Positions 799-48,520 of a stretch of DNA of 48,520 bases are shown here, one piece after another; the stretch's first letter is position 1; the number at the start of each line of letters is the position of its first letter. Source of the stretch: a virus. Lineage: Duplodnaviria; Heunggongvirae; Uroviricota; Caudoviricetes. A program made the position numbers and the translations under genes. The stretch lies in the IMG/VR virus record IMGVR_UViG_2563366838_000005. One strand, 5' to 3'. Below the pieces are notes generated by a model. The model saw only the letters and a list, made by a program, of their open reading frames with translations, had not been told where the DNA came from and did not search any database.

Positions 799-1518
799 GT
801 GGCTGACAGAATTGAGATAAAGATGGATTTTTCTTCTCAGGATATTCAACGACAACTCCAGCGCCTTGAAGAACGCGAATTGCCGTTCGCAATGGCGCTT
901 GCGGCAACCAGAACGGCAAAGGCTTCTCAGGCTGCGATTAAGAATGAAATTAATCGGGTATTTGACAGGCCCACGCCGTGGATTCAGAACTCTACTTACG
1001 TTTTGGCCGCAAAGAAGAGTGATCCTACAGCCATTGTGTATGCTCGTGAATGGGGAGGAACGCCAGCCCCTGTAACGTTGACTCCGCAAATCGAAGGTGG
1101 CCAACGACAGTACAAACGCTCAGAAGGGGCGCTAAGGGCTGGTGGATATTTGCCTAACGGCTGGCAGATTGCTCCTGGTCCCGGCGCAAAGCTGGACAAA
1201 TACGGGAATATTTCGCGGGGGCAATTACAGCAGGTCTTATCTGGCCTAAGAGTTCAGCGAGATGCGCATCAAAATCGCCGTCAGGGCAAGCCTACGGAGT
1301 TTTTTGTTGTTCGACCTGGTACAAGTAACCCGCTTCAACCAGGCGTCTGGCAGCGCGTTGGGCGGCGTCCTACGTTGATCCTTACGTTTATCCAGCAACC
1401 TAACTATTCGCAGCGTCTTGATTGGCATGGCGTGGCGCTGCGTGCTGGTGAGGATGCGTTTGCTGATGAAGTCACAAAGGCTATTGATGACATTCTTTCC
1501 AAGACCTTCTCTCGTTAA
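799..1518 (+). CDS. Hypothetical protein (239 aa), tightly linked downstream of the ParB-methyltransferase fusion
   Basis: Long ORF starting 17 nt after the previous stop; no motif I recognise. Confidence 0.5.
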   Translation: MADRIEIKMDFSSQDIQRQLQRLEERELPFAMALAATRTAKASQAAIKNEINRVFDRPTPWIQNSTYVLAAKKSDPTAIVYAREWGGTPAPVTLTPQIEGGQRQYKRSEGALRAGGYLPNGWQIAPGPGAKLDKYGNISRGQLQQVLSGLRVQRDAHQNRRQGKPTEFFVVRPGTSNPLQPGVWQRVGRRPTLILTFIQQPNYSQRLDWHGVALRAGEDAFADEVTKAIDDILSKTFSR

Positions 1519-1692
1519 TCATCGTGTGGTTGATGGTGTTGTTATGCAGAGTGTATTCACTGTGTTCTGTAGCGTCGCTCGCTGGCTGTCTGTGGGGGAG
1601 CACGAGCATCGTTTCATCGTCCGGCAGAATTGGGTCCTTCTGGACAAAAGCGTTGGATGCGGGTCATTCGAACCCCGATGTTCGGCTAGCTA

Positions 1693-2075
1693 AACGTGAA
1701 AAAAGTTAGGTTAAAAGTTGCGGTAAAAGAAATTTACTCATCTCATTGAAAAATATCGGGAAAACGTGATTTTTTGCTGTATTTGTGCTGGTAAAAAGAA
1801 AGTAGAAAATTTTCTTTTAGATCATCAAGATACGCGCAGATCTTTAACCAATGTGATGTTGTTCTGATAAAAATCGTTATAAATCATGCAAATACATCCA
1901 ATCTTTTAACCAAAACACCATCTCAAGATCCTTTTTACTTATAAAAACTTAATAAAATCAGATGATTATGCTGGTTTGTGTGATTTTTTATGAGTAAAAA
2001 GATCGTCATTTTTCTCTTTTAGTATCAATAAGTTAAACAGTTTTCTTTAACCTGTTGTGTTATGGCGGTTAAAAA
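1693..2075. promoter_or_regulatory. AT-rich ORF-free region upstream of packaging genes; candidate packaging site and/or late promoter
   Basis: About 380 bp with no ORF; three copies of TCTT(T)TAACC (near 1842, 1902, 2045) and four GATC sites. Confidence 0.3.
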
Positions 2076-3222: not shown

Positions 3223-5079
3223 ATGGGCGAAACAGTATGGAGCACCGCTTTTTTCCGTGCGCTTCGCCCTAAATCACGGCTAACTGTTTCCGAATGGGCT
3301 GATAAGTATCGTCATGTAGCGCCGGGAACGTCTCCAGAGCCAGGGCCGTGGCGTACAAGCCGAGTGCCATATTTGCGTGAACCAATGGATGTTATTGGTG
3401 ACGCTGATACAGAAACAGTAGTGATGCAATGTAGCTCGCAAATTGGTAAATCCGAATTACAGCTAAATGTTATGGGTTACTTTGCAGATCAGGAGCCATC
3501 TCCTCAGTTGATGATTTATCCAACGGTAGAGGCGGCTGAGGCTTTTTCAAAAGAGCGTATTGATCCGACGTTCAAATATTCCCCTGGTTTGAAACACAAG
3601 CTGCATGAAGGGAAAGAGGGGCGCGGTGCAGCCAAAAAGTCCAGCACGACTATACGTATGAAGCATTACGCTGGTGGATATATAGCACTTGTTGGTGCTA
3701 ATTCCCCAGCAGGTCTTGCATCCAGGCCAATTCGAATACTGTTAGCTGATGAGATTGATCGTTACGGTGTGACGCAGGAGGGCGACCCACTAAAACTAGG
3801 TATTCAGCGTACTACCAACTTTCATAATCGTAAGAAAGTTTTTGTTTCTACTCCTGTTTTGGAGGAAACGAGCAAAATCCACAAGTGGTTTAAGCTCTCC
3901 GATCAGCGTTACTACCATGTTCCTTGCCCATGTTGTGGCACCATGCAGGTGATGAAATGGTCGCAAGTCAGATGGGATAAGAGCGATTCAGGTGAGGCGT
4001 TACCGGAAACGGCCAGATATGAGTGCTGTGAGTGCGGCGGGATTATGCGCGGATCTGGTAAACCAGACGTTGATTGGTTGGCGAAGGGGGTATGGATAGC
4101 TGAACATACTGGAGTTAAAGGTATTGTTGGTTTTCATATTAACAGTCTTTACTCCCCGTGGGTTGCATTGTCAGAGCTGGTTGAAGAATTTACGGAAGCA
4201 ACCAGAAACCGCGATAAAAATGGATTAATGGAGTTTATTAACCTTAAGCTGGGTGAGCCATGGAAAGAGGATGCTAAAGACGATATCGATCCTGAATACT
4301 TGTTGCAACGCAGAATAAGGTTTGAAGAGTTTTTACCAGATGATGTTTTATTGTTAAGTGCTGGTGTTGACGTACAGGACACGTATTTAGTTTGTGAATT
4401 GGTCGGTTGGGGAAAAGGTAAGGAGTCATGGGGGATAGAATATAAAATATTCCCAGGTGATCCCGCACAAGATGTTGTCTGGAAACAACTTGATGAATAC
4501 TTACTCCGTAGCTGGTCATTCCGTGACGGTCGAAAATTACAGATTTCTTCCGTTTGTATTGACTCTGGTGGGCATTTTACGACAGAGGTATATCGCTTTA
4601 CTAAGCCGAGAGAATCAAGGCGAATATACTCTATCAGGGGGCGTGGTGGGGTAGGTTTACCATTTATAGGAAAGCCAAGTAATAATAACCGTGTGGGTGC
4701 TATGTTGTTTAATTTGGGGGTTGATGATGGTAAAGGGACCATCATGGCAAGAATTAAACTACATGATCCTGGTCCTGGTTATATGCATTTCCCATTAGAT
4801 TCTGACAGAGGATATGATACCGAATACTTTAAAGGATTATTATCAGAGAAGAAAATATTTGAATATAAAAATGGGCAGACAAAAGAAAAGTGGGTGAAAG
4901 TCTACGAGCGTAACGAGCCTCTTGATTGCCGTAACTATGCAACTGCCGCGATGGAAATTCTGAACCCTAATTTTAACTGGCTTGCCGAACAGGAAATGCG
5001 AGGTAATGTGTATGTGCAGAACTCGTCAGGTATACGTAGAAGACGCCGTAGAGTTATAAGTAAAGGCGTAACCATATAG
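3223..5079 (+). CDS. Terminase large subunit, lambda gpA-like
   Basis: 618 aa; size and sequence character match the GpA terminase family; followed by gpW-like and portal genes. Confidence 0.85.
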   Translation: MGETVWSTAFFRALRPKSRLTVSEWADKYRHVAPGTSPEPGPWRTSRVPYLREPMDVIGDADTETVVMQCSSQIGKSELQLNVMGYFADQEPSPQLMIYPTVEAAEAFSKERIDPTFKYSPGLKHKLHEGKEGRGAAKKSSTTIRMKHYAGGYIALVGANSPAGLASRPIRILLADEIDRYGVTQEGDPLKLGIQRTTNFHNRKKVFVSTPVLEETSKIHKWFKLSDQRYYHVPCPCCGTMQVMKWSQVRWDKSDSGEALPETARYECCECGGIMRGSGKPDVDWLAKGVWIAEHTGVKGIVGFHINSLYSPWVALSELVEEFTEATRNRDKNGLMEFINLKLGEPWKEDAKDDIDPEYLLQRRIRFEEFLPDDVLLLSAGVDVQDTYLVCELVGWGKGKESWGIEYKIFPGDPAQDVVWKQLDEYLLRSWSFRDGRKLQISSVCIDSGGHFTTEVYRFTKPRESRRIYSIRGRGGVGLPFIGKPSNNNRVGAMLFNLGVDDGKGTIMARIKLHDPGPGYMHFPLDSDRGYDTEYFKGLLSEKKIFEYKNGQTKEKWVKVYERNEPLDCRNYATAAMEILNPNFNWLAEQEMRGNVYVQNSSGIRRRRRRVISKGVTI

Positions 5080-27800: not shown

Positions 27801-27913
27801 TATTTATATAATTATAGATTTATATAAAAAGTGCTTTACGGGTGGGAAAAAATTTCCTAAGGTTATACCCGAAACCGAGCGATACCCGCCCTGGTTAAAC
27901 CGGAGATAACCCG
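27801..27913 (+). promoter_or_regulatory. Conserved promoter/leader block, copy 1
   Basis: Near-identical to 37201-37320 and 45221-45336: TATAATTATAGATTTATATAA motif, TTTAC(A/G)-17 nt-TAAGGT, conserved leader ending GGAG-N8-ATG. Confidence 0.55.
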
Positions 27914-28294
27914 ATGAGCATGATTAAAATCCGCAAAAACGCTTTCCTTAAAATTCAAACTATCCTGGCTGGTTCTGTCGGCGTGATTTGCCGTTCTTCT
28001 TCAAGCCGCATCGATGACGGCTACGATGATGAGTATCGTGTGTCCTCGTGCGATGAGGCTTTAACCTGGCTGAAGGAGAATCAGGAACGTGCCCAGGTAT
28101 ATCTGGAAACAGAGAACGGCAATCAGATGCTGCGTATTAGCGGTCGTTATGGATTTGAAACTACATTCATGGCCTATTTTAATCAGGCTTACTTTGACAA
28201 GGAGCTGGCCTGGTACACTGACCGCATGAGCAAAAGCGAGCCAGCCCCGATTACACCGCCGAACAATAAACCATTTTTATTCCTCGTTAAGTAA
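27914..28294 (+). CDS. Hypothetical protein (126 aa) driven by conserved promoter copy 1
   Basis: ORF starts exactly at the end of the conserved block. Confidence 0.5.
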   Translation: MSMIKIRKNAFLKIQTILAGSVGVICRSSSSRIDDGYDDEYRVSSCDEALTWLKENQERAQVYLETENGNQMLRISGRYGFETTFMAYFNQAYFDKELAWYTDRMSKSEPAPITPPNNKPFLFLVK

Positions 28295-37200: not shown

Positions 37201-37320
37201 AAAATCTATAAATATATAATTATAGATTTATATAAAAAGTGCTTTACAGGTGGGAAAAAATTTCCTAAGGTTATACCCGAAACCGAGCGATACCCGCCCT
37301 GGTTAAACCGGAGAAATCTG
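37201..37320 (+). promoter_or_regulatory. Conserved promoter/leader block, copy 2
   Basis: Near-identical to copies 1 and 3; upstream AAATCTATAA-N8-TTATAGATTT inverted repeat. Confidence 0.55.
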
Positions 37321-38388
37321 ATGAATAAACAAGTAATTATTTCTGACTGGATCAACAACCCTAACAGCCTGTTAAGCACTGATACTGGCTACCTATTACG
37401 CCATGTTAATGGTCGTATGGTCAAAAGCGATGAGCACGAAACCTTTTTCTTTGTTGAAGATGATGGGCGTATCTATGAGGATGGTTACTCTTATGAAGCC
37501 CAAACTGGTTGTATCCCTGCGGAGCTGGTGGACGTAACAGAAGATCTGCGCAAAGCATGGCTTGAACAGCAGCAGCGCGGAGATGATTACGTAAACACCT
37601 ATCAGGAACGCCAGAACGCGCGTCTTGCCCGATATATTGCTCGTGCAGAAAAAGCCAGAAAAGAAGGTGCGGTAGCGCATAAGCGAGCGCATGACCTGTT
37701 GGATGTGATCCCGTTAGGCCAGCCGATTTTAGTTGACCATTATAGCGCGAAAGGCCATCGCCGCCGTTTGTCTAAAGCTGATGCGTTATTAAGAAAAGCG
37801 TTTGTTGAATGCGAAAGTAAAGCATCACACTACGAGAGCAAAGCCGCAGGTGTTGGTCGTAATGGAATTTCGTCTGATGATCCTGATGCGCTATTTAAGT
37901 TGCTTCGTAAGCTGCAAGGCTGCATGAAGTCACACGTCAAAATGAAGGCCGCAAATAAGGCCATTCGCAAATACAAAAAAGACCAATTACAGCAGCTTTC
38001 TGCATTAATCGATCTCAGGTTTACAGAAAGCGAAGCCAAAGAGTTACTGGCCGGAGATTTCTGTGGGCACATCGGATTCCCTTCATACGCACTGAGCAAC
38101 AATAACGCCGAGATCAAACGACTACAGAGCCGTATTAAGGAGCTTGAATCGGTCAAGTCTGTAACAGGAGCACAGCGCGAAGAATACGACGACTTTTCTA
38201 TGGAGATAGATCCAGAGGATAACCGCATCCTGTTTTATTTCCCTGGCAAACCAGAGGCAAACATTCGTTCGCTGCTTAAATCACGTGCCTTTAAGTGGAG
38301 TCCAACCCGTAATGCATGGGTTCGCAAGATTACTCCAAATGCCCTGGCTGATGCCCGATATCTGAAAGAATCGCTATTGAAAGCCTGA
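37321..38388 (+). CDS. DUF3560-like hypothetical protein (355 aa)
   Basis: GQPILVDHYSAKGHRRR motif recalled as typical of DUF3560; starts exactly after conserved block. Confidence 0.5.
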   Translation: MNKQVIISDWINNPNSLLSTDTGYLLRHVNGRMVKSDEHETFFFVEDDGRIYEDGYSYEAQTGCIPAELVDVTEDLRKAWLEQQQRGDDYVNTYQERQNARLARYIARAEKARKEGAVAHKRAHDLLDVIPLGQPILVDHYSAKGHRRRLSKADALLRKAFVECESKASHYESKAAGVGRNGISSDDPDALFKLLRKLQGCMKSHVKMKAANKAIRKYKKDQLQQLSALIDLRFTESEAKELLAGDFCGHIGFPSYALSNNNAEIKRLQSRIKELESVKSVTGAQREEYDDFSMEIDPEDNRILFYFPGKPEANIRSLLKSRAFKWSPTRNAWVRKITPNALADARYLKESLLKA

Positions 38389-44637: not shown

Positions 44638-45225
44638 ATGGAGGCAATTGCATTGTTTAATCTGATTTATGCAGATCCCCCCTGGGAATACAAAGATAAG
44701 TGTAAGGATGGGAATCGTGGAGCTGGTTTTAAGTATCCAACGATGAAAGCTGAGGATATTGCTCGTATTCCTGTCTGGCAGCTTGCTAATCCTGAATCGT
44801 GTTTGTTGGCCATGTGGTGGGTTCCGACTCAGCCAGAAGAAGCGTTGCTGGTGGTGAAAGCATGGGGATTCAGGCTTATGACCATGAAGGGCTTCACATG
44901 GAACAAATGTGGTAGCCGACAACCAGATAAGCTGGTGATGGGGATGGGGCATATGACTCGTGCAAACAGTGAAGATTGCTTGTTTGCGGTAAAAGGCAAA
45001 TTGCCGACCCGCCTTGATGCGGGGATCATTCAGTCGTTTACATCGCCTCGTCTGGAGCATTCTCGGAAGCCTGATGTGGTTCGTGACAAGCTGGTAAGGC
45101 TGTTAGGTGATGTTCCTCGTATTGAGCTGTTTGCTCGCGGTGATTTACCTGATGGTTGGCATGGCTGGGGCAACCAGTGCAATGGAAGTATCCAGTTGCA
45201 TGATGCTCTCTGGCAAGTGGTATAG
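44638..45225 (+). CDS. DNA adenine methyltransferase, MT-A70-like
   Basis: 195 aa; IYADPPWEY catalytic motif near N-terminus. Confidence 0.7.
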   Translation: MEAIALFNLIYADPPWEYKDKCKDGNRGAGFKYPTMKAEDIARIPVWQLANPESCLLAMWWVPTQPEEALLVVKAWGFRLMTMKGFTWNKCGSRQPDKLVMGMGHMTRANSEDCLFAVKGKLPTRLDAGIIQSFTSPRLEHSRKPDVVRDKLVRLLGDVPRIELFARGDLPDGWHGWGNQCNGSIQLHDALWQVV

Positions 45226-45336
45226 AATTATATAATTATAGATTTATATAAAAGTGCTTTACAGGTGGGAAAAAATTTCCTATGGTTATACCCGAAACCG
45301 AGCGATACCCGCCCTGGTTAAACCGGAGATAACCCG
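45221..45336 (+). promoter_or_regulatory. Conserved promoter/leader block, copy 3
   Basis: Near-identical to copies 1 and 2 (TTTACA-17 nt-TATGGT variant), ends at ATG 45337. Confidence 0.55.
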
Positions 45337-45606
45337 ATGAAAGTACAAGACCGTGAAGTAGTAAAAAACCTCCTGCAATACCTGACCTCAAAAAACCTGA
45401 CTGGCAGCGTTGAGTTCCGTGAAGCGTTAAAACATTTCAACGTCACTACGGTTTATCGTTGGGAAAACAAACATTCTGAAAGACCGTATGTGGTGGATGT
45501 TTTTGCGCCTGATATTGAGTGCGGTTTTGAGCGTCATTCGTTCAAGGAGAAACATTCTGCTGATTTTTTTTGTGAGGTTGTATGTGCGGCAGGAGATGAT
45601 GAGTGA
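45337..45606 (+). CDS. Hypothetical protein (89 aa) driven by conserved promoter copy 3
   Basis: ORF begins at end of conserved block. Confidence 0.5.
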   Translation: MKVQDREVVKNLLQYLTSKNLTGSVEFREALKHFNVTTVYRWENKHSERPYVVDVFAPDIECGFERHSFKEKHSADFFCEVVCAAGDDE

Positions 45607-45803
45607 TGCGTATTTCCTTCAAACGTGCGACTGAGCAGCAACGCAAAGAGTTCCTGGCTGATGATGTAGCGGCCGTTTATGACCTCATGAAAGAGGTTGT
45701 GGAATCAGGGAACTACACGGCGGCAAAGATGCTTAAACTGCAATTCTTGCTGGGCGACCTGAAATACAAATCCGAAGTTGTCGCCGGACGACGCGAGCAT
45801 TAA
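45603..45803 (+). CDS. Hypothetical protein
   Basis: 66 aa ORF overlapping the previous stop, followed by terminator. Confidence 0.4.
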   Translation: MMRISFKRATEQQRKEFLADDVAAVYDLMKEVVESGNYTAAKMLKLQFLLGDLKYKSEVVAGRREH

Positions 45804-45826
45804 ACCGTAACGATAACGAACAACGA

Positions 45827-45853
45827 GCCTCGGCAATTGCCGGGGCTTTTTTA
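45827..45853 (+). terminator. Rho-independent terminator
   Basis: 8 bp stem gcctcggc/gccggggc with one G-U pair, loop aatt, then T6. Confidence 0.6.
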
Positions 45854-45877
45854 CATCCAGACAAAGGAGAACATGGG

Positions 45878-46177
45878 ATGCCTTCGACAAGCACCAAAAA
45901 AGAAATGGCGGTTAGTGATGTGCTTTACGCGCTTTCGACTATATGTGACGGAGCAATGATGAGGATGAAAGTCCTCCATGAAGCATACGGAAAAAGTCAC
46001 GATGAGGCAGCTAAAGAGTGCCTGAATGAGATTGTGGACTTCATTGATAGCCATCGTTCAGTTATATCGCGTCAACCGACAGCGTCGTCCATCACGATTA
46101 GCGCACCGGTTATCAATATATCAGTAACTGCGGCATGTAAATCAGCAGCGGAAGATGATCGTGCTTATGCCGAGTGA
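45878..46177 (+). CDS. Hypothetical protein
   Basis: 99 aa ORF. Confidence 0.4.
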   Translation: MPSTSTKKEMAVSDVLYALSTICDGAMMRMKVLHEAYGKSHDEAAKECLNEIVDFIDSHRSVISRQPTASSITISAPVINISVTAACKSAAEDDRAYAE

Positions 46178-46367
46178 TTTGTTCTGGTTTCCGCTTCCAA
46201 TAAGAGATTTGTTGGTATTTCTAGCTGGCGCTTACGTCTGGAGAAAAGCGAAAGACACCTCGTTATCTTTGAGGTTTGTCTTAGCTATATCGGTAGGAAC
46301 CGCGCTGGGGACGGCGTATCTCTTGACATTACTGGAGATATTCATTGAAGAATGGATAGTTTCATGA
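46155..46367 (+). CDS. Small membrane protein
   Basis: 70 aa with two hydrophobic helices. Confidence 0.4.
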   Translation: MIVLMPSDLFWFPLPIRDLLVFLAGAYVWRKAKDTSLSLRFVLAISVGTALGTAYLLTLLEIFIEEWIVS

Positions 46368-46516
46368 ATGGTGTTGGCATTTTTCTGATGGTTGTGGCCG
46401 TGTGTTTTTGTATCTCGCTGGTGGTTATCGCTGGTGTCCTGTGGCGCATCTTAGTGGCGCAGAGGGCTTTTCGGCTTAAGCGGGAGCAAATGCGCCTTGA
46501 TTTATATCGAAAGTAA
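46364..46516 (+). CDS. Candidate small membrane peptide (50 aa)
   Basis: ATG 46364 overlapping previous stop; hydrophobic N-terminus and basic C-terminus; terminator follows. Confidence 0.3.
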   Translation: MNGVGIFLMVVAVCFCISLVVIAGVLWRILVAQRAFRLKREQMRLDLYRK

Positions 46517-46524
46517 CTCTTACA

Positions 46525-46554
46525 GCCTCGCGGTGTCGCGGGGCTTTTTATTTT
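46525..46554 (+). terminator. Rho-independent terminator
   Basis: 8 bp stem gcctcgcg/cgcggggc, loop gtgt, then T-run. Confidence 0.6.
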
Positions 46555-46565
46555 CAGGTGATGTT

Positions 46566-46976
46566 ATGGAAAAGAAAGAAGATAAACCGATTGCCATTGG
46601 TGCAGAGTCTGTTCCGTTTAAGTTTGAATTATCCCAACTGGTAACAATGCGTATCAGTGAAGAGTGGGGAGAAGTTCAAGCCCGTGCTCAGTATGCAAAT
46701 GGCGAAAACCAGTATCTGATTCACTATCAGGCGGCTGATGGCCGTGCTACCACAGAGTGGTTCGGTGAGTCGATGCTGATTGCGATGGAGGATAAACGTC
46801 ATCCTGGCTGCCCTGTTTTTGCCTGTATTGATTTGCCAGAAGGCGCGGTACTTGAAGACGACAAAGAAGAATGGTCGCCTGATGGCGAACTTGTCATTAC
46901 CGGAATCGTGGATGGTAAGCCGGAATATTCCCGTATTGAGGTAAATAACGGCCACATCTGTTTGATCCCTGCGTAA
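46566..46976 (+). CDS. Hypothetical protein
   Basis: 136 aa from ATG 46566 with AGGTG SD. Confidence 0.45.
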   Translation: MEKKEDKPIAIGAESVPFKFELSQLVTMRISEEWGEVQARAQYANGENQYLIHYQAADGRATTEWFGESMLIAMEDKRHPGCPVFACIDLPEGAVLEDDKEEWSPDGELVITGIVDGKPEYSRIEVNNGHICLIPA

Positions 46977-47210
46977 CGCATTACAGCAGCTCTTGTGCTA
47001 ATCAGGGGCTGCGATAATGCGCAAACCAAAGCTGCCTCATTAACTCCTGCTCGCTGTGGAGTTAATGCTGGTGGCTTTTTTATTACTGGAAGGTGGGCGA
47101 CCGCCGTCAGTTGCGACCTGACGACAGTCATTCATACCCACAGGGTGCCGTGGATACAAACCGAGGCCCACTTGCTTGCACAAGCGAGGGGATTTTAGCG
47201 GATAAACGGC

Positions 47211-47834
47211 ATGACAAAACATCTTAATGTGGTTTCTTTACCACTTTCTGTGTTGATTGGTTATGAAAAGAACGCTCGCACACACTCCGTGGAGCAGGTA
47301 GATCAGATTGTTGCCAGCATACAGGAGTACGGATGGACTAATCCGATCCTGATAGACGAGAACAACGTTGTAATTGCTGGTCATGGTCGAATTGCTGCGG
47401 CCACTCAGTTGGGGATGGATGATGTTCCCTGCATTGTTCTGGCTGGGCTAACGGAGAATCAGAAGAAGGCATATCGTCTGGCCGACAACCGTATTCCGCT
47501 GAATGCTGGTTGGGATGAAGAGTTGTTAAGCGCGGAGCTTGCAGATCTTGCGGCCGATGATTTTGCTCTGGACTCAATTGGTTTTACTCAGCGCGAACTG
47601 GATAACTTATTGAGTGCGGCAGTCTACGATGACACAGAGGGTATGGATATCCCATTTGAGAAGGATGAGGCCAAATCAGGCGTAAAAGTTCAGTACCTGT
47701 CATTTGGAGGTCATAAAATCCCGGCAACGGATGAGGAAGCGGATCGTTTTGACTGCGCGGTGTCTCGTTATGTTGATGATAATGGCAGCTATATCGGATT
47801 TGTATCCGCATTGCTGGCTGGGGAGGTGTGCTGA
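47211..47834 (+). CDS. ParB-like nuclease domain protein (paralog of 2076..2666)
   Basis: KNARTHS and GHGRIAAA motifs; stop overlaps the start of the next gene. Confidence 0.75.
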   Translation: MTKHLNVVSLPLSVLIGYEKNARTHSVEQVDQIVASIQEYGWTNPILIDENNVVIAGHGRIAAATQLGMDDVPCIVLAGLTENQKKAYRLADNRIPLNAGWDEELLSAELADLAADDFALDSIGFTQRELDNLLSAAVYDDTEGMDIPFEKDEAKSGVKVQYLSFGGHKIPATDEEADRFDCAVSRYVDDNGSYIGFVSALLAGEVC

Positions 47835-48520
47835 TGCTTCACCTCAATTACGACATAACGCACCTACGCGGCGCGGAATATAACCCGCGTTTTATCGGTG
47901 AGGATGATCTTGCGAGGCTGGCGGAAAGCGTCAGGGAGCTGGGGCTTGTGAAGCCATTGATAGTGCGCGGCGATTTGCTGGTGGCGGGACACCAAAGGAC
48001 GAAGGCGCTACGTAAGTTGGGAATAACGCGTGCTGCGGTGTATGTGTTGCCCTGTGAAACGACGGTATACGACGAAGTACGGTTTAACCAACTGCATAAC
48101 GGAACGGATTTTGATAGCGGAGATGAGCGTTGCAGGGTGTCCGGTCTGGAAGATAAGCATGGTTTTGTTCAGGTATCGGCAAGCCAGATCTCAGGCAATA
48201 TGCGCGCGAAAATGGCATATGTTCGAAAGAACATAGCGGAACTGGTTATCAAGTATGGTCCGTGGGGTGGTTGTGTTGCTACTCAGTCTGGTGAGGTTAT
48301 TCACTGTGCTCAGTATGCATTAGCAGCGAAAATGACGCGCACACCGCTAACGGTGTTTGTGATCCCTGATGTTGAGAAGGAAAAATACCAAAGTTATCTG
48401 AATAAAACTTATGGTGTATTTGAGTATTCTCATCTGGAGAAAACAACATACATCCAGACGTATGCGCAGCTTATGCGGTTGCGTAATGGTGGCAGCCTGA
48501 AATCAAATCTGTATGAGTCG
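47834..48520 (+). CDS. 5' portion of wrap-around gene: ParB-N-like domain of the ParB/methyltransferase fusion (runs off window end, continues at 1..782)
   Basis: ATG 47834 overlapping previous TGA; GHQRTKAL ParB-like motif; no stop before window end; frame continuous with 48..782. Confidence 0.65.
   Translation, partial: MLHLNYDITHLRGAEYNPRFIGEDDLARLAESVRELGLVKPLIVRGDLLVAGHQRTKALRKLGITRAAVYVLPCETTVYDEVRFNQLHNGTDFDSGDERCRVSGLEDKHGFVQVSASQISGNMRAKMAYVRKNIAELVIKYGPWGGCVATQSGEVIHCAQYALAAKMTRTPLTVFVIPDVEKEKYQSYLNKTYGVFEYSHLEKTTYIQTYAQLMRLRNGGSLKSNLYES

Follow-up and report, generated by a model that had tools for sequence, protein, structure and literature searches.

A probable lambda-type cos site with an expanded cosB-like arm in a widespread phage-plasmid of Escherichia coli, Salmonella and Yersinia

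The 48,520-nucleotide (nt) stretch of DNA analyzed here, referred to below as the window, is the IMG/VR virus record IMGVR_UViG_2563366838_000005 (Caudoviricetes), and the element it represents is a common phage-plasmid of E. coli, Salmonella and Yersinia. We conclude that positions 1632–2075 of the window most likely constitute a lambda-type cos site, composed of a cosQ element, a cosN element and an AT-rich, cosB-like arm of ~400 bp. An earlier note, made from the sequence alone, had put forward the interval 1693–2075 as a candidate packaging site. This was right as to the region, since the gene-free gap harbors the cos region and the repeats within it very probably form its terminase-recognition part, but not as to the cut, which we place at 1662–1673, outside that interval; a further conserved element (1632–1638) lies outside it as well. 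Given the cut site and the positions of the repeats, the interval 1693–2075 is best read as an expanded cosB. As far as the sequence tells, the packaging type is lambda-like cos, not P1-like pac. Mechanistically, this amounts to ordinary lambda-type packaging, with an unusual expanded cosB and a gene for a ParB/Srx-like protein interposed before the terminase genes.

The genome ends were located through the records of sister and related phages, in which slashes below mark the presumed nick positions. The records of the Yersinia phages vB_YpM_41 and vB_YpM_39 start with GGTCATTCGAAC/CCCGATG at window position 1662 and end in GGATGCG, and that of vB_YpM_44 starts with CCCGATG at 1674 and ends in GCGGGTCATTCGAAC at 1673, which sets the two linearisations exactly 12 nt apart. 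The nearest distinct relatives, namely the Vibrio myophages X29, phi 2, Rostov 7 and vB_VpaM_XM1 (XM1) together with others, have large terminase subunits (TerL) with 63–66% identity to that of the window, and their linear records break at the base homologous to the cohesive end of the window. In particular, the XM1 record starts with GGTGCTCGCGAC/CCCGCG and repeats the same 12-mer at its right end, and the X29 record ends in GGTGCTCGCGA and starts with CCCCGG. The homologous base is also the start of the IMG/VR contig L104 and of two independent Logan contigs, L179 and L180 (loci compared in this work are designated by L numbers). We infer a 5′-protruding polarity for the 12-nt cohesive end by analogy with lambda and with the Serratia phage vB_SspM_BZS1 (BZS1), and a filled-in 5′ overhang would agree with the occurrence of the XM1 12-mer at either end of its record. 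The publication on XM1 does not discuss its termini (PMC11432961).

The cut falls within a core that is shared by a large family of phages. More than 30 loci, gathered with a TerL alignment from genome and viral collections and with hosts among Pseudomonadota, Bacillota and Bacteroidota, carry the family core GCG/GGTSnnnnnnRS/CCCGnnTTTCGkCTAGCTryA on the coding strand, 0.5–2.1 kb upstream of terL. In order to guard against circularity, the cosN profile was rebuilt from eight distant relatives with the window left out. This window-free profile matched 1658–1692 with an E-value (E) of 1e-6 as the sole significant match, the next one in the window having an E-value of 0.31. Furthermore, cosN is invariant among 10 close copies of the region.

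Upstream of cosN, the window holds a single copy of the heptamer GGGTCCT, which we take to be lambda's cosQ, compared with about 2.5 copies expected on both strands. Lambda (NC_001416) carries the identical heptamer at bp 48473–48479, likewise exactly 30 nt upstream of its left end, and GGGTCCT, AGGTACT or AGGTTCT was found at about −30 in ~35 relatives, i.e., nearly all of those examined. The heptamer is invariant in the 10 close copies, and cosQ is described as a highly conserved element of 7 bp (PMC4669245). The cosN core accompanied by a heptamer at about −30 was observed as a common trait of the gpA-type terminase loci L010–L089 and L094–L173, which come from Pseudomonadota, Bacillota, Bacteroidota and others. 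The lambda cosQ–cosN geometry, to judge from these alignments, seems to be conserved well beyond the classical lambdoid phages: the heptamer, the 30-nt spacing and the cosN core are kept in gpA-type phages of several bacterial phyla, and the cosB repeats drift with the putative recognition helix of the small terminase subunit (TerS).

Downstream of cosN, the guanine-cytosine (GC) content is 0.30 across 1674–2075, compared with 0.448 for the whole window, and this arm is occupied by a repeat array (Table 1). Of 11 occurrences of the TTTAACC core in the window, both strands counted, five fall within the 402 nt of 1674–2075, whereas local dinucleotide shuffles contained 0.12 copies on average and none of 5000 reached five; the repeats are therefore real, far beyond chance. 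The description of this interval in the earlier note as AT-rich, with three TCTT(T)TAACC copies (TCTTTAACC at 1841–1849 and 2044–2052, TCTTTTAACC at 1902–1911) and four GATC sites, was accurate. Those three copies are the inverted members of a larger set, which comprises at least 6–8 oriented GGT(T)AAA(A)G(A) elements of 9–12 bp. Counted from the first cohesive-end base, the elements at +48, +61 and +129 point away from cosN, and those at +180, +241 and +383 are inverted, toward cosN. A copy at 2067 overlaps the start codon of the next gene and is not conserved in relatives.

Table 1. Features of the cos region and of the genes around it in the window (plus and minus offsets refer to the left cohesive end; slashes mark the inferred nicks).
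Feature	Positions	Strand	Remarks
cosQ-like heptamer GGGTCCT	1632–1638	+	30 nt upstream of the first cohesive-end base
cosN core, GCG/GGTCATTCGAAC/CCCGATGTTCGGCTAGCTAAAC	1658–1694	+	inferred staggered nicks flank 1662–1673
12-nt cohesive end, GGTCATTCGAAC	1662–1673	+	from record ends of sister and related phages
A-tract spacer (GTGAAAAAAGTTA)	1695–1708	+	between cosN and S1; possible counterpart of lambda I2
S1, GGTTAAAAG	1709–1717	+	+48, corresponding in placement to lambda R3; invariant among 10 close copies
S2, GGTAAAAGA (GGTAAAAG at 1722)	1722–1730	+	+61; +59 in L100, +62 in L096–L101
S3, GGTAAAAAGA (GGTAAAAAG at 1790)	1790–1799	+	+129; +127 in L100, +130 in L096–L101
Dispensable, fast-evolving segment	1800–1889		contains two GATC sites (1820, 1839) and S4
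S4, TCTTTAACC (minus strand GGTTAAAGA)	1841–1849	−	+180; first copy noted earlier; position and inverted orientation kept (+180 in L100, +183 in L096–L101)
S5, TCTTTTAACC	1902–1911	−	+241; second copy noted earlier; invariant in 10 close copies; aligned copy in L100, degenerate in L096–L101
S6, degenerate CTTTTTAC(TT)	1931–1938	−	+270; aligns with CTTTTTACC in L101; weak
IHF-consensus-like AATCAGATGATTA, 1 mismatch	1956–1968	+	all close and intermediate relatives have it at +294 to +299; suggestive
S7, degenerate (GA)GTAAAAAG(A)	1994–2001	+	+333; aligns with GGGTAAAAAGA in L096–L101
Perfect IHF consensus TATCAATAAGTTA	2023–2035	+	perfect match at the same place in L099
S8, TCTTTAACC	2044–2052	−	+383; third copy noted earlier; aligned copies in L099 and L096–L101, at +385 in L100
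239-aa protein gene	799–1518		PHROG 1924; immediate upstream neighbor of the gap
ParB/Srx N-terminal-domain protein, 196 aa	2076–2666	+	Pfam ParB_N 3.8e-8; PHROG 620 4.6e-75
TerS, 183 aa	2666–3217	+	PHROG 57 (terminase small subunit) 1.4e-41
TerL, lambda gpA family	3223–5079	+	Pfam GpA_ATPase 7.1e-76, GpA_nuclease 1.1e-84

This layout of three forward elements followed by three inverted ones, together with their positions, is kept in L100, L177 and L096–L101 despite differing repeat sequences. L100 (77% TerL identity) and L177 (55% TerS identity) share it with a sharper unit, TAGGTTAACAAAT; in L100, forward units lie at +45, +59 and +127 and reverse units at +180, +255, +308, +322, +385, +459, +479 and +526. 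Relatives with 87–91% TerL identity have GGT(T)AAAAG units at +48, +62, +130, +183, +319, +333 and +386. The repeat is of the type GGTTAACAAA in L100 and L177 and GTTAACAC in the Vibrio phages and L015, and the first repeat is found at +45 to +50 in every lineage. Among the 10 close copies, the TTTAACC-type sites have no variable positions, compared with about 12% in the spacers. Sites co-evolving with a protein that binds them would be expected to keep their positions while their sequence drifts. Most relatives have the order cosN, 80–340 nt, terS and terL, as in lambda, and their arms hold lineage-specific short motifs at +46 to +52, such as a TTTCCG-type motif (cf. lambda R3) in L115, L117 and L129 and ATTTCGTTACG in L033, L077 and L083. 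The BZS1 arm contains three copies of GGTAACA and the arms of the window clade GGT(T)AAC- or GGTTAAA-type motifs. A hairpin model, with the repeats symmetric about +155, was rejected: it fits the window, and the relatives loosely, its center is deleted in vB_YpM_44, and it remains a loose analogy.

With regard to the protein that recognizes these sites, TerS is probably the binder, by analogy with lambda. We propose it because its putative recognition helix varies in step with the type of repeat (GTTAACAC, in the Vibrio phages and L015, is accompanied by SHVWVSKL, GGTTAACAAA by SRPAVTKL and GGTTAAAAG by SPAMVTKL), because its N-domain is modeled as a winged helix-turn-helix and because the sites are invariant among the ten close copies. 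In the AlphaFold model, the N-domain has a predicted local distance difference test score (pLDDT) of about 88–90, and the best fold matches obtained with Foldseek were RacA, Xis, BldC and the gpNu1 DNA-binding domain (1J9I; probability 0.90, template modeling (TM) score 0.60). On the basis of this model, we assign the TerS N-domain with moderate confidence to the MerR/Nu1-type winged helix-turn-helix fold; a sequence search of the PDB with TerS returned nothing meaningful.

In the mechanism that we envisage, the gpA-family TerL would make nicks staggered by 12 nt at cosN, leaving the GGTCATTCGAAC end. The winged-helix N-domains of TerS would bind the arm elements, probably on bent or looped DNA, by analogy with R3/I1/R2/R1 of lambda. 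Bound TerS would anchor TerL over cosN to start packaging and, from the arm, would keep the terminase on the left end while packaging proceeds along concatemers, whereas cosQ would serve termination. It has been described that TerS at cosB anchors TerL for cosN nicking and that the spacing of R3 relative to cosN is critical (PMC4669245, PMC9026076).

AAAAAGTTAGGTTAA of the spacer between cosN and S1 is conserved in relatives, and this A-tract may be the counterpart of lambda I2, which spans about bp 18–50 and has poly-dA/dT segments (PMC4856287). Matches to the consensus of integration host factor (IHF) are statistically weak, with five in the window versus 3.6 expected; lambda I1 is itself a one-mismatch site in the same scan. 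IHF-like sequences recur at conserved positions, namely +157 to +160 in relatives and +295 and +362 in the window. Between S3 and S4, the consensus is perfect in L099, has one mismatch in L096–L101/L100 (+157 to +160) and is degenerate in the window, a pattern that is again statistically weak. By analogy with lambda, IHF may play a role in the arm. Substitutions among the close copies cluster in 1800 to ~1925, and the plaque-forming isolate vB_YpM_44 (L003) shows a clean 90-nt deletion of 1800–1889.

Besides the heptamer, the element shares with lambda a gpA-family TerL, the 12-nt stagger, the order cos, terS, terL and a conserved TTCG.CTA block just to the right of the nick, as well as, according to the model, a TerS with a MerR/Nu1-type N-domain. 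In both, the first small-terminase-type repeat, a putative one in the window, lies at about +50, and both repeat orientations occur with IHF-like sequences, which in the window are statistically weak, between them (PMC4669245). They differ in the sequence of the cohesive end and in the repeat, which is GGT(T)AAAAG in the window and CGTTTCC in lambda.

Several observations weigh against a lambda-type cos site. The Yersinia records are flagged as circular, and their start points are therefore indirect evidence of physical ends. The family cosN profile matches neither the cosN of lambda nor that of BZS1, and the window and lambda cos regions are identical, without gaps, at 29 of 70 positions, a value that random windows exceed and that is not significant alone. 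The window has at least 6–8 repeats over ~400 bp, compared with three over 120 bp in lambda, the arm being ~3 times longer, and its terS is not adjacent to cosB, as the ParB/Srx gene lies between them. All Foldseek E-values for TerS were above 0.1, and a BLASTP comparison of TerS with lambda Nu1 detected no similarity. Finally, a phage can do without 90 nt that include one repeat; the full set of copies is thus not required. Given the low identity to lambda and the failure of the profile to match it, the element is linked to lambda by its cosQ heptamer and the offset of that heptamer, by the stagger of 12 nt and by the terminase families and architecture, and we do not claim homology of the cosN sequence to that of lambda beyond the shared blocks.

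A further comparison is offered by BZS1, whose 5′ cohesive ends of 12 nt were called with PhageTerm and verified by PCR sequencing (PMC7556043). Its TerS is homologous to that of the window (E 1e-10), its TerL is 37% identical, and its end coincides to within 1 nt with that of the window, GGGTCCT being found at about −31, CTAGCTA to the right of the end and three GGTAACA repeats from +46 to +72. In contrast to the window, BZS1 has a short arm of 74 nt, in which three repeats in tandem immediately precede terS and a ParB-like gene is missing; it integrates and is not a plasmid, and its reported nicks deviate by 1 nt from the family alignment. At the published end of BZS1 (L174/L175), GCATTGCGCGCC, cosQ is found at −31, and 11 nt, not 12, separate the end from CTAGCTA; this displacement of 1 nt may be either a real shift or a ±1 call by PhageTerm. 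The Vibrio myophages X29, phi 2, Rostov 7 and XM1, for which the name 'Weiviridae' has been proposed (PMC11432961), have the same trio of ParB-like, TerS and TerL genes, a homologous cosN (GGTGCTCGCGAC) at their record ends, cosQ at −30 and five GTTAACAC/G repeats from +49. They differ in an arm of ~140 nt, in repeats that nearly all have one orientation and in the lack of GATC.

The main and serious rival to TerS as the binder is the ParB/Srx-like protein encoded at 2076–2666, which would bind the repeats instead of or together with TerS, forming a centromere-like nucleoprotein complex by cosN that would act as an additional packaging-specificity or regulatory factor; we consider this unlikely. 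Centromere sites often adjoin parB genes, and a ParB-like gene occupies the same position in the Vibrio phages, L015, L100, L103 and L177; it stands between the array and terS in every lineage with a long GGTTAA array, i.e., the window element, the Vibrio phages, L015, L100 and L177, and arrays tend to be larger (5–11 copies) where the gene is present. However, L103 has the ParB-like gene with one repeat only, and GGTAAC-type repeats directly precede a homologous terS without an intervening ParB-like gene in BZS1 and in L021/L105. Moreover, the first site at +48 matches the position of the lambda TerS site R3. As for the protein itself, only residues 21–88 match the N-domains of Spo0J/Noc, and no helix-turn-helix or other DNA-binding domain was detected beyond ParB_N; a search for homologues gave only proteins with at least 99% identity among the matches listed. 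The two further ParB/Srx paralogs of the element are fused or adjacent to a methyltransferase, which suggests a role in DNA modification rather than as a centromere protein.

There is a somewhat smaller chance that the ParB/Srx-like protein is a third component of packaging initiation, which would load on, or spread from, the GGTTAA-type repeats and couple the plasmid and packaging states. If so, it could mask cos during plasmid maintenance or recruit the terminase late in infection, a function of the ParB family that has not been described for cos phages. Of wider interest is the role of this gene, wedged between cosB and terS. Three ParB/Srx N-domain paralogs were observed within 4 kb around cos (47211–47834, 47834–48520 continuing into 1–782, and 2076–2666), one of them fused to an S-adenosylmethionine-dependent methyltransferase domain (Methyltransf_23) and the one after cos without a partner domain.

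It is improbable that the repeat region serves mainly in transcriptional control, as a late promoter of the ParB-like, terminase and head operon, equipped with activator or repressor sites, that stands beside cos by chance. A long intergenic gap does front a long co-oriented operon here, and short motifs repeated in both orientations, such as these, are typical of operator arrays. Nevertheless, a scan of 1400–2300 for sigma-70 promoters and terminators found none, although 1.9 promoters were expected in shuffled sequence, and the upstream genes are co-oriented, which makes read-through possible. Neither is the motif spread as a regulon needs, as three of the four matches to GGT[TA]AAAAG in the genome lie in this region, and the promoter-like cassette that is reiterated in the element is a different one, located elsewhere. 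In addition, the first site is fixed relative to cosN, whereas its distance to the downstream start codon varies from 103 to 555 nt.

The earlier note had also conceived of methylation-sensitive recognition of the packaging site, pointing to the GATC sites and to the MT-A70-type adenine methyltransferase of the element. The latter gene is indeed present at 44638–45225 (Pfam match 3.4e-23), but we found no link between it and the packaging site. If the idea is modeled on P1 pac, adenine methylation of the clustered GATC sites by host Dam or MT-A70 would control the site, and we regard this as very improbable. The four sites, at 1820, 1839, 1927 and 2001, lie within 185 bp of AT-rich DNA, compared with about 0.9 expected in the arm from local shuffles, a mild excess given that 0.9% of shuffles reach four, and those at 1927 and 2001 are retained in some relatives. 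However, random placement would give about two clusters of four GATC within 185 bp per window, two were seen, and 80% of placements have at least one. The sites at 1820 and 1839 vary among copies that are >98% identical: vB_YpM_41 has GATA at 1820, vB_YpM_39 has GAAC at 1839 and an extra GATC at 1900, and the deletion in the viable vB_YpM_44 removes these two GATC sites and S4. Relatives with 77–91% TerL identity have 0–4 GATC sites at shifting positions, with 1–4 in L096–L101 at places that differ in part and one in L101, and GATC is absent from the corresponding arms in L100 and the Vibrio phages. Furthermore, GATC lies outside the repeat unit (AGATCTTTAACC, CAATCTTTTAACC, TTTTCTTTAACC), adjoining only one of three TCTTTAACC copies. 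It is also rarer in the window than expected (135 versus 168 ± 12 in dinucleotide shuffles, every one of which had at least 135), which hints at selection against the motif rather than its use. The GATC sites thus appear incidental. P1 packages by a headful mechanism with PacA/PacB, giving permuted, redundant DNA. The likeness of the window to P1 pac, with repeats and GATC near packaging genes, is superficial: the TerL of the window is of the gpA type, not PacA/PacB, its unique cohesive ends are inferred from the fixed ends of related genomes, and its GATC sites are outside the repeat unit and not conserved.

Because the element is a phage-plasmid, iterons or a centromere for plasmid replication or partition were also weighed, a reading prompted by its state as a ~48-kb plasmid in 71 of 72 E. 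coli carriers and by the resemblance of AT-rich DNA with iterated short motifs and GATC to some plasmid origins; it is, however, hardly credible, as repA lies ~24 kb away with the repeat motif absent near it, the ParA-family gene with its own small partner open reading frame (ORF) lies ~16 kb away, no ParB that combines a sequence-specific DNA-binding domain with a ParA partner next to it was found (ParB_N alone was detected), the array is in fixed register with cosN, and the same architecture by cosN is present in lytic or non-plasmid relatives (the Vibrio phages and the integrating BZS1).

The gene-free gap that contains the cos site extends over 1519–2075 (557 nt), where the sister records have no annotated gene, and includes the whole interval 1693–2075. 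It had been described earlier as lying between ParB/methyltransferase genes on one side and ParB-like and terminase genes on the other. This holds for the downstream side, where the genes for the ParB/Srx N-domain protein, TerS and TerL follow in the same orientation and, after terL, those for a lambda-type portal, a ClpP-like protease and head proteins; it does not hold upstream, where the gene of the PHROG 1924 protein is the direct neighbor and the ParB-methyltransferase gene ends at 782. A small ORF at 1990–2022 (10 aa) was rejected as coding, as it is not conserved in relatives, and an Rfam scan of 1400–2300 found no RNA family.

The last 95 nt of the window (48426–48520) exactly repeat positions 1–95, leaving 48,425 unique nt; the window is therefore a circular assembly, opened arbitrarily inside the ParB-methyltransferase gene. 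The cos region is 98.6–99.6% identical to that of the Yersinia phages vB_YpM_39, vB_YpM_41 and vB_YpM_44 and of Escherichia phage vB_EcoM-613R2. Positions 1500–2200 are present, at 97–99.9% identity, in 72 of 5426 complete E. coli genomes (~1.3%), and in all but one of these carriers the cos region is on a circular plasmid of ~48 kb (range about 47–50 kb). The carriers include E. coli ATCC 25922 (pATCC25922_4), and further copies are found in E. fergusonii, E. albertii and one Klebsiella plasmid. We found no paper describing the cos of this element; those on HQ103 and on enterotoxigenic E. coli phage-plasmids concern unrelated elements. The present analysis places the genome ends and packaging signal of a widespread phage-plasmid of E. 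coli, Salmonella and Yersinia, which is of use for orienting its genomes correctly, for cosmid-like or transduction tools and for recognizing satellites that might copy this cos.

Additional features of the element were also recorded. A cassette of ~112 nt (TATATAATTATAGATTTATATAAAAAGTGCTTTACAGGTGGGAAAAAATTTCCTAAGGTTATACCCGAAACCGAGCGATACCCGCCCTGGTTAAACCGGAGA...ATG) occurs in three near-identical copies on the plus strand, at about 27803–27916, 37211–37323 and 45227–45339, and each copy leads up to the start codon of another gene. It has the look of a promoter, structured leader and ribosome-binding site that are reiterated together; the leader folds better than shuffled sequences (z = −2.9), and an Rfam scan of the cassette gave a chance microRNA match only. 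In the plasmid copy L176 (NZ_CP117232.1, 1–48488), the RefSeq annotation lists repA, a ParA-family gene, a RelE/ParE toxin-antitoxin pair and an XRE repressor, together with a Ref nuclease, holins, tRNA-Ile and a P2/Mu-like contractile tail. At 45426–48163 of this copy, convergent tail-fibre-assembly genes, a truncated inverted tail-protein gene and a serine recombinase gene resemble an invertible host-range segment of the Cin/Gin type.

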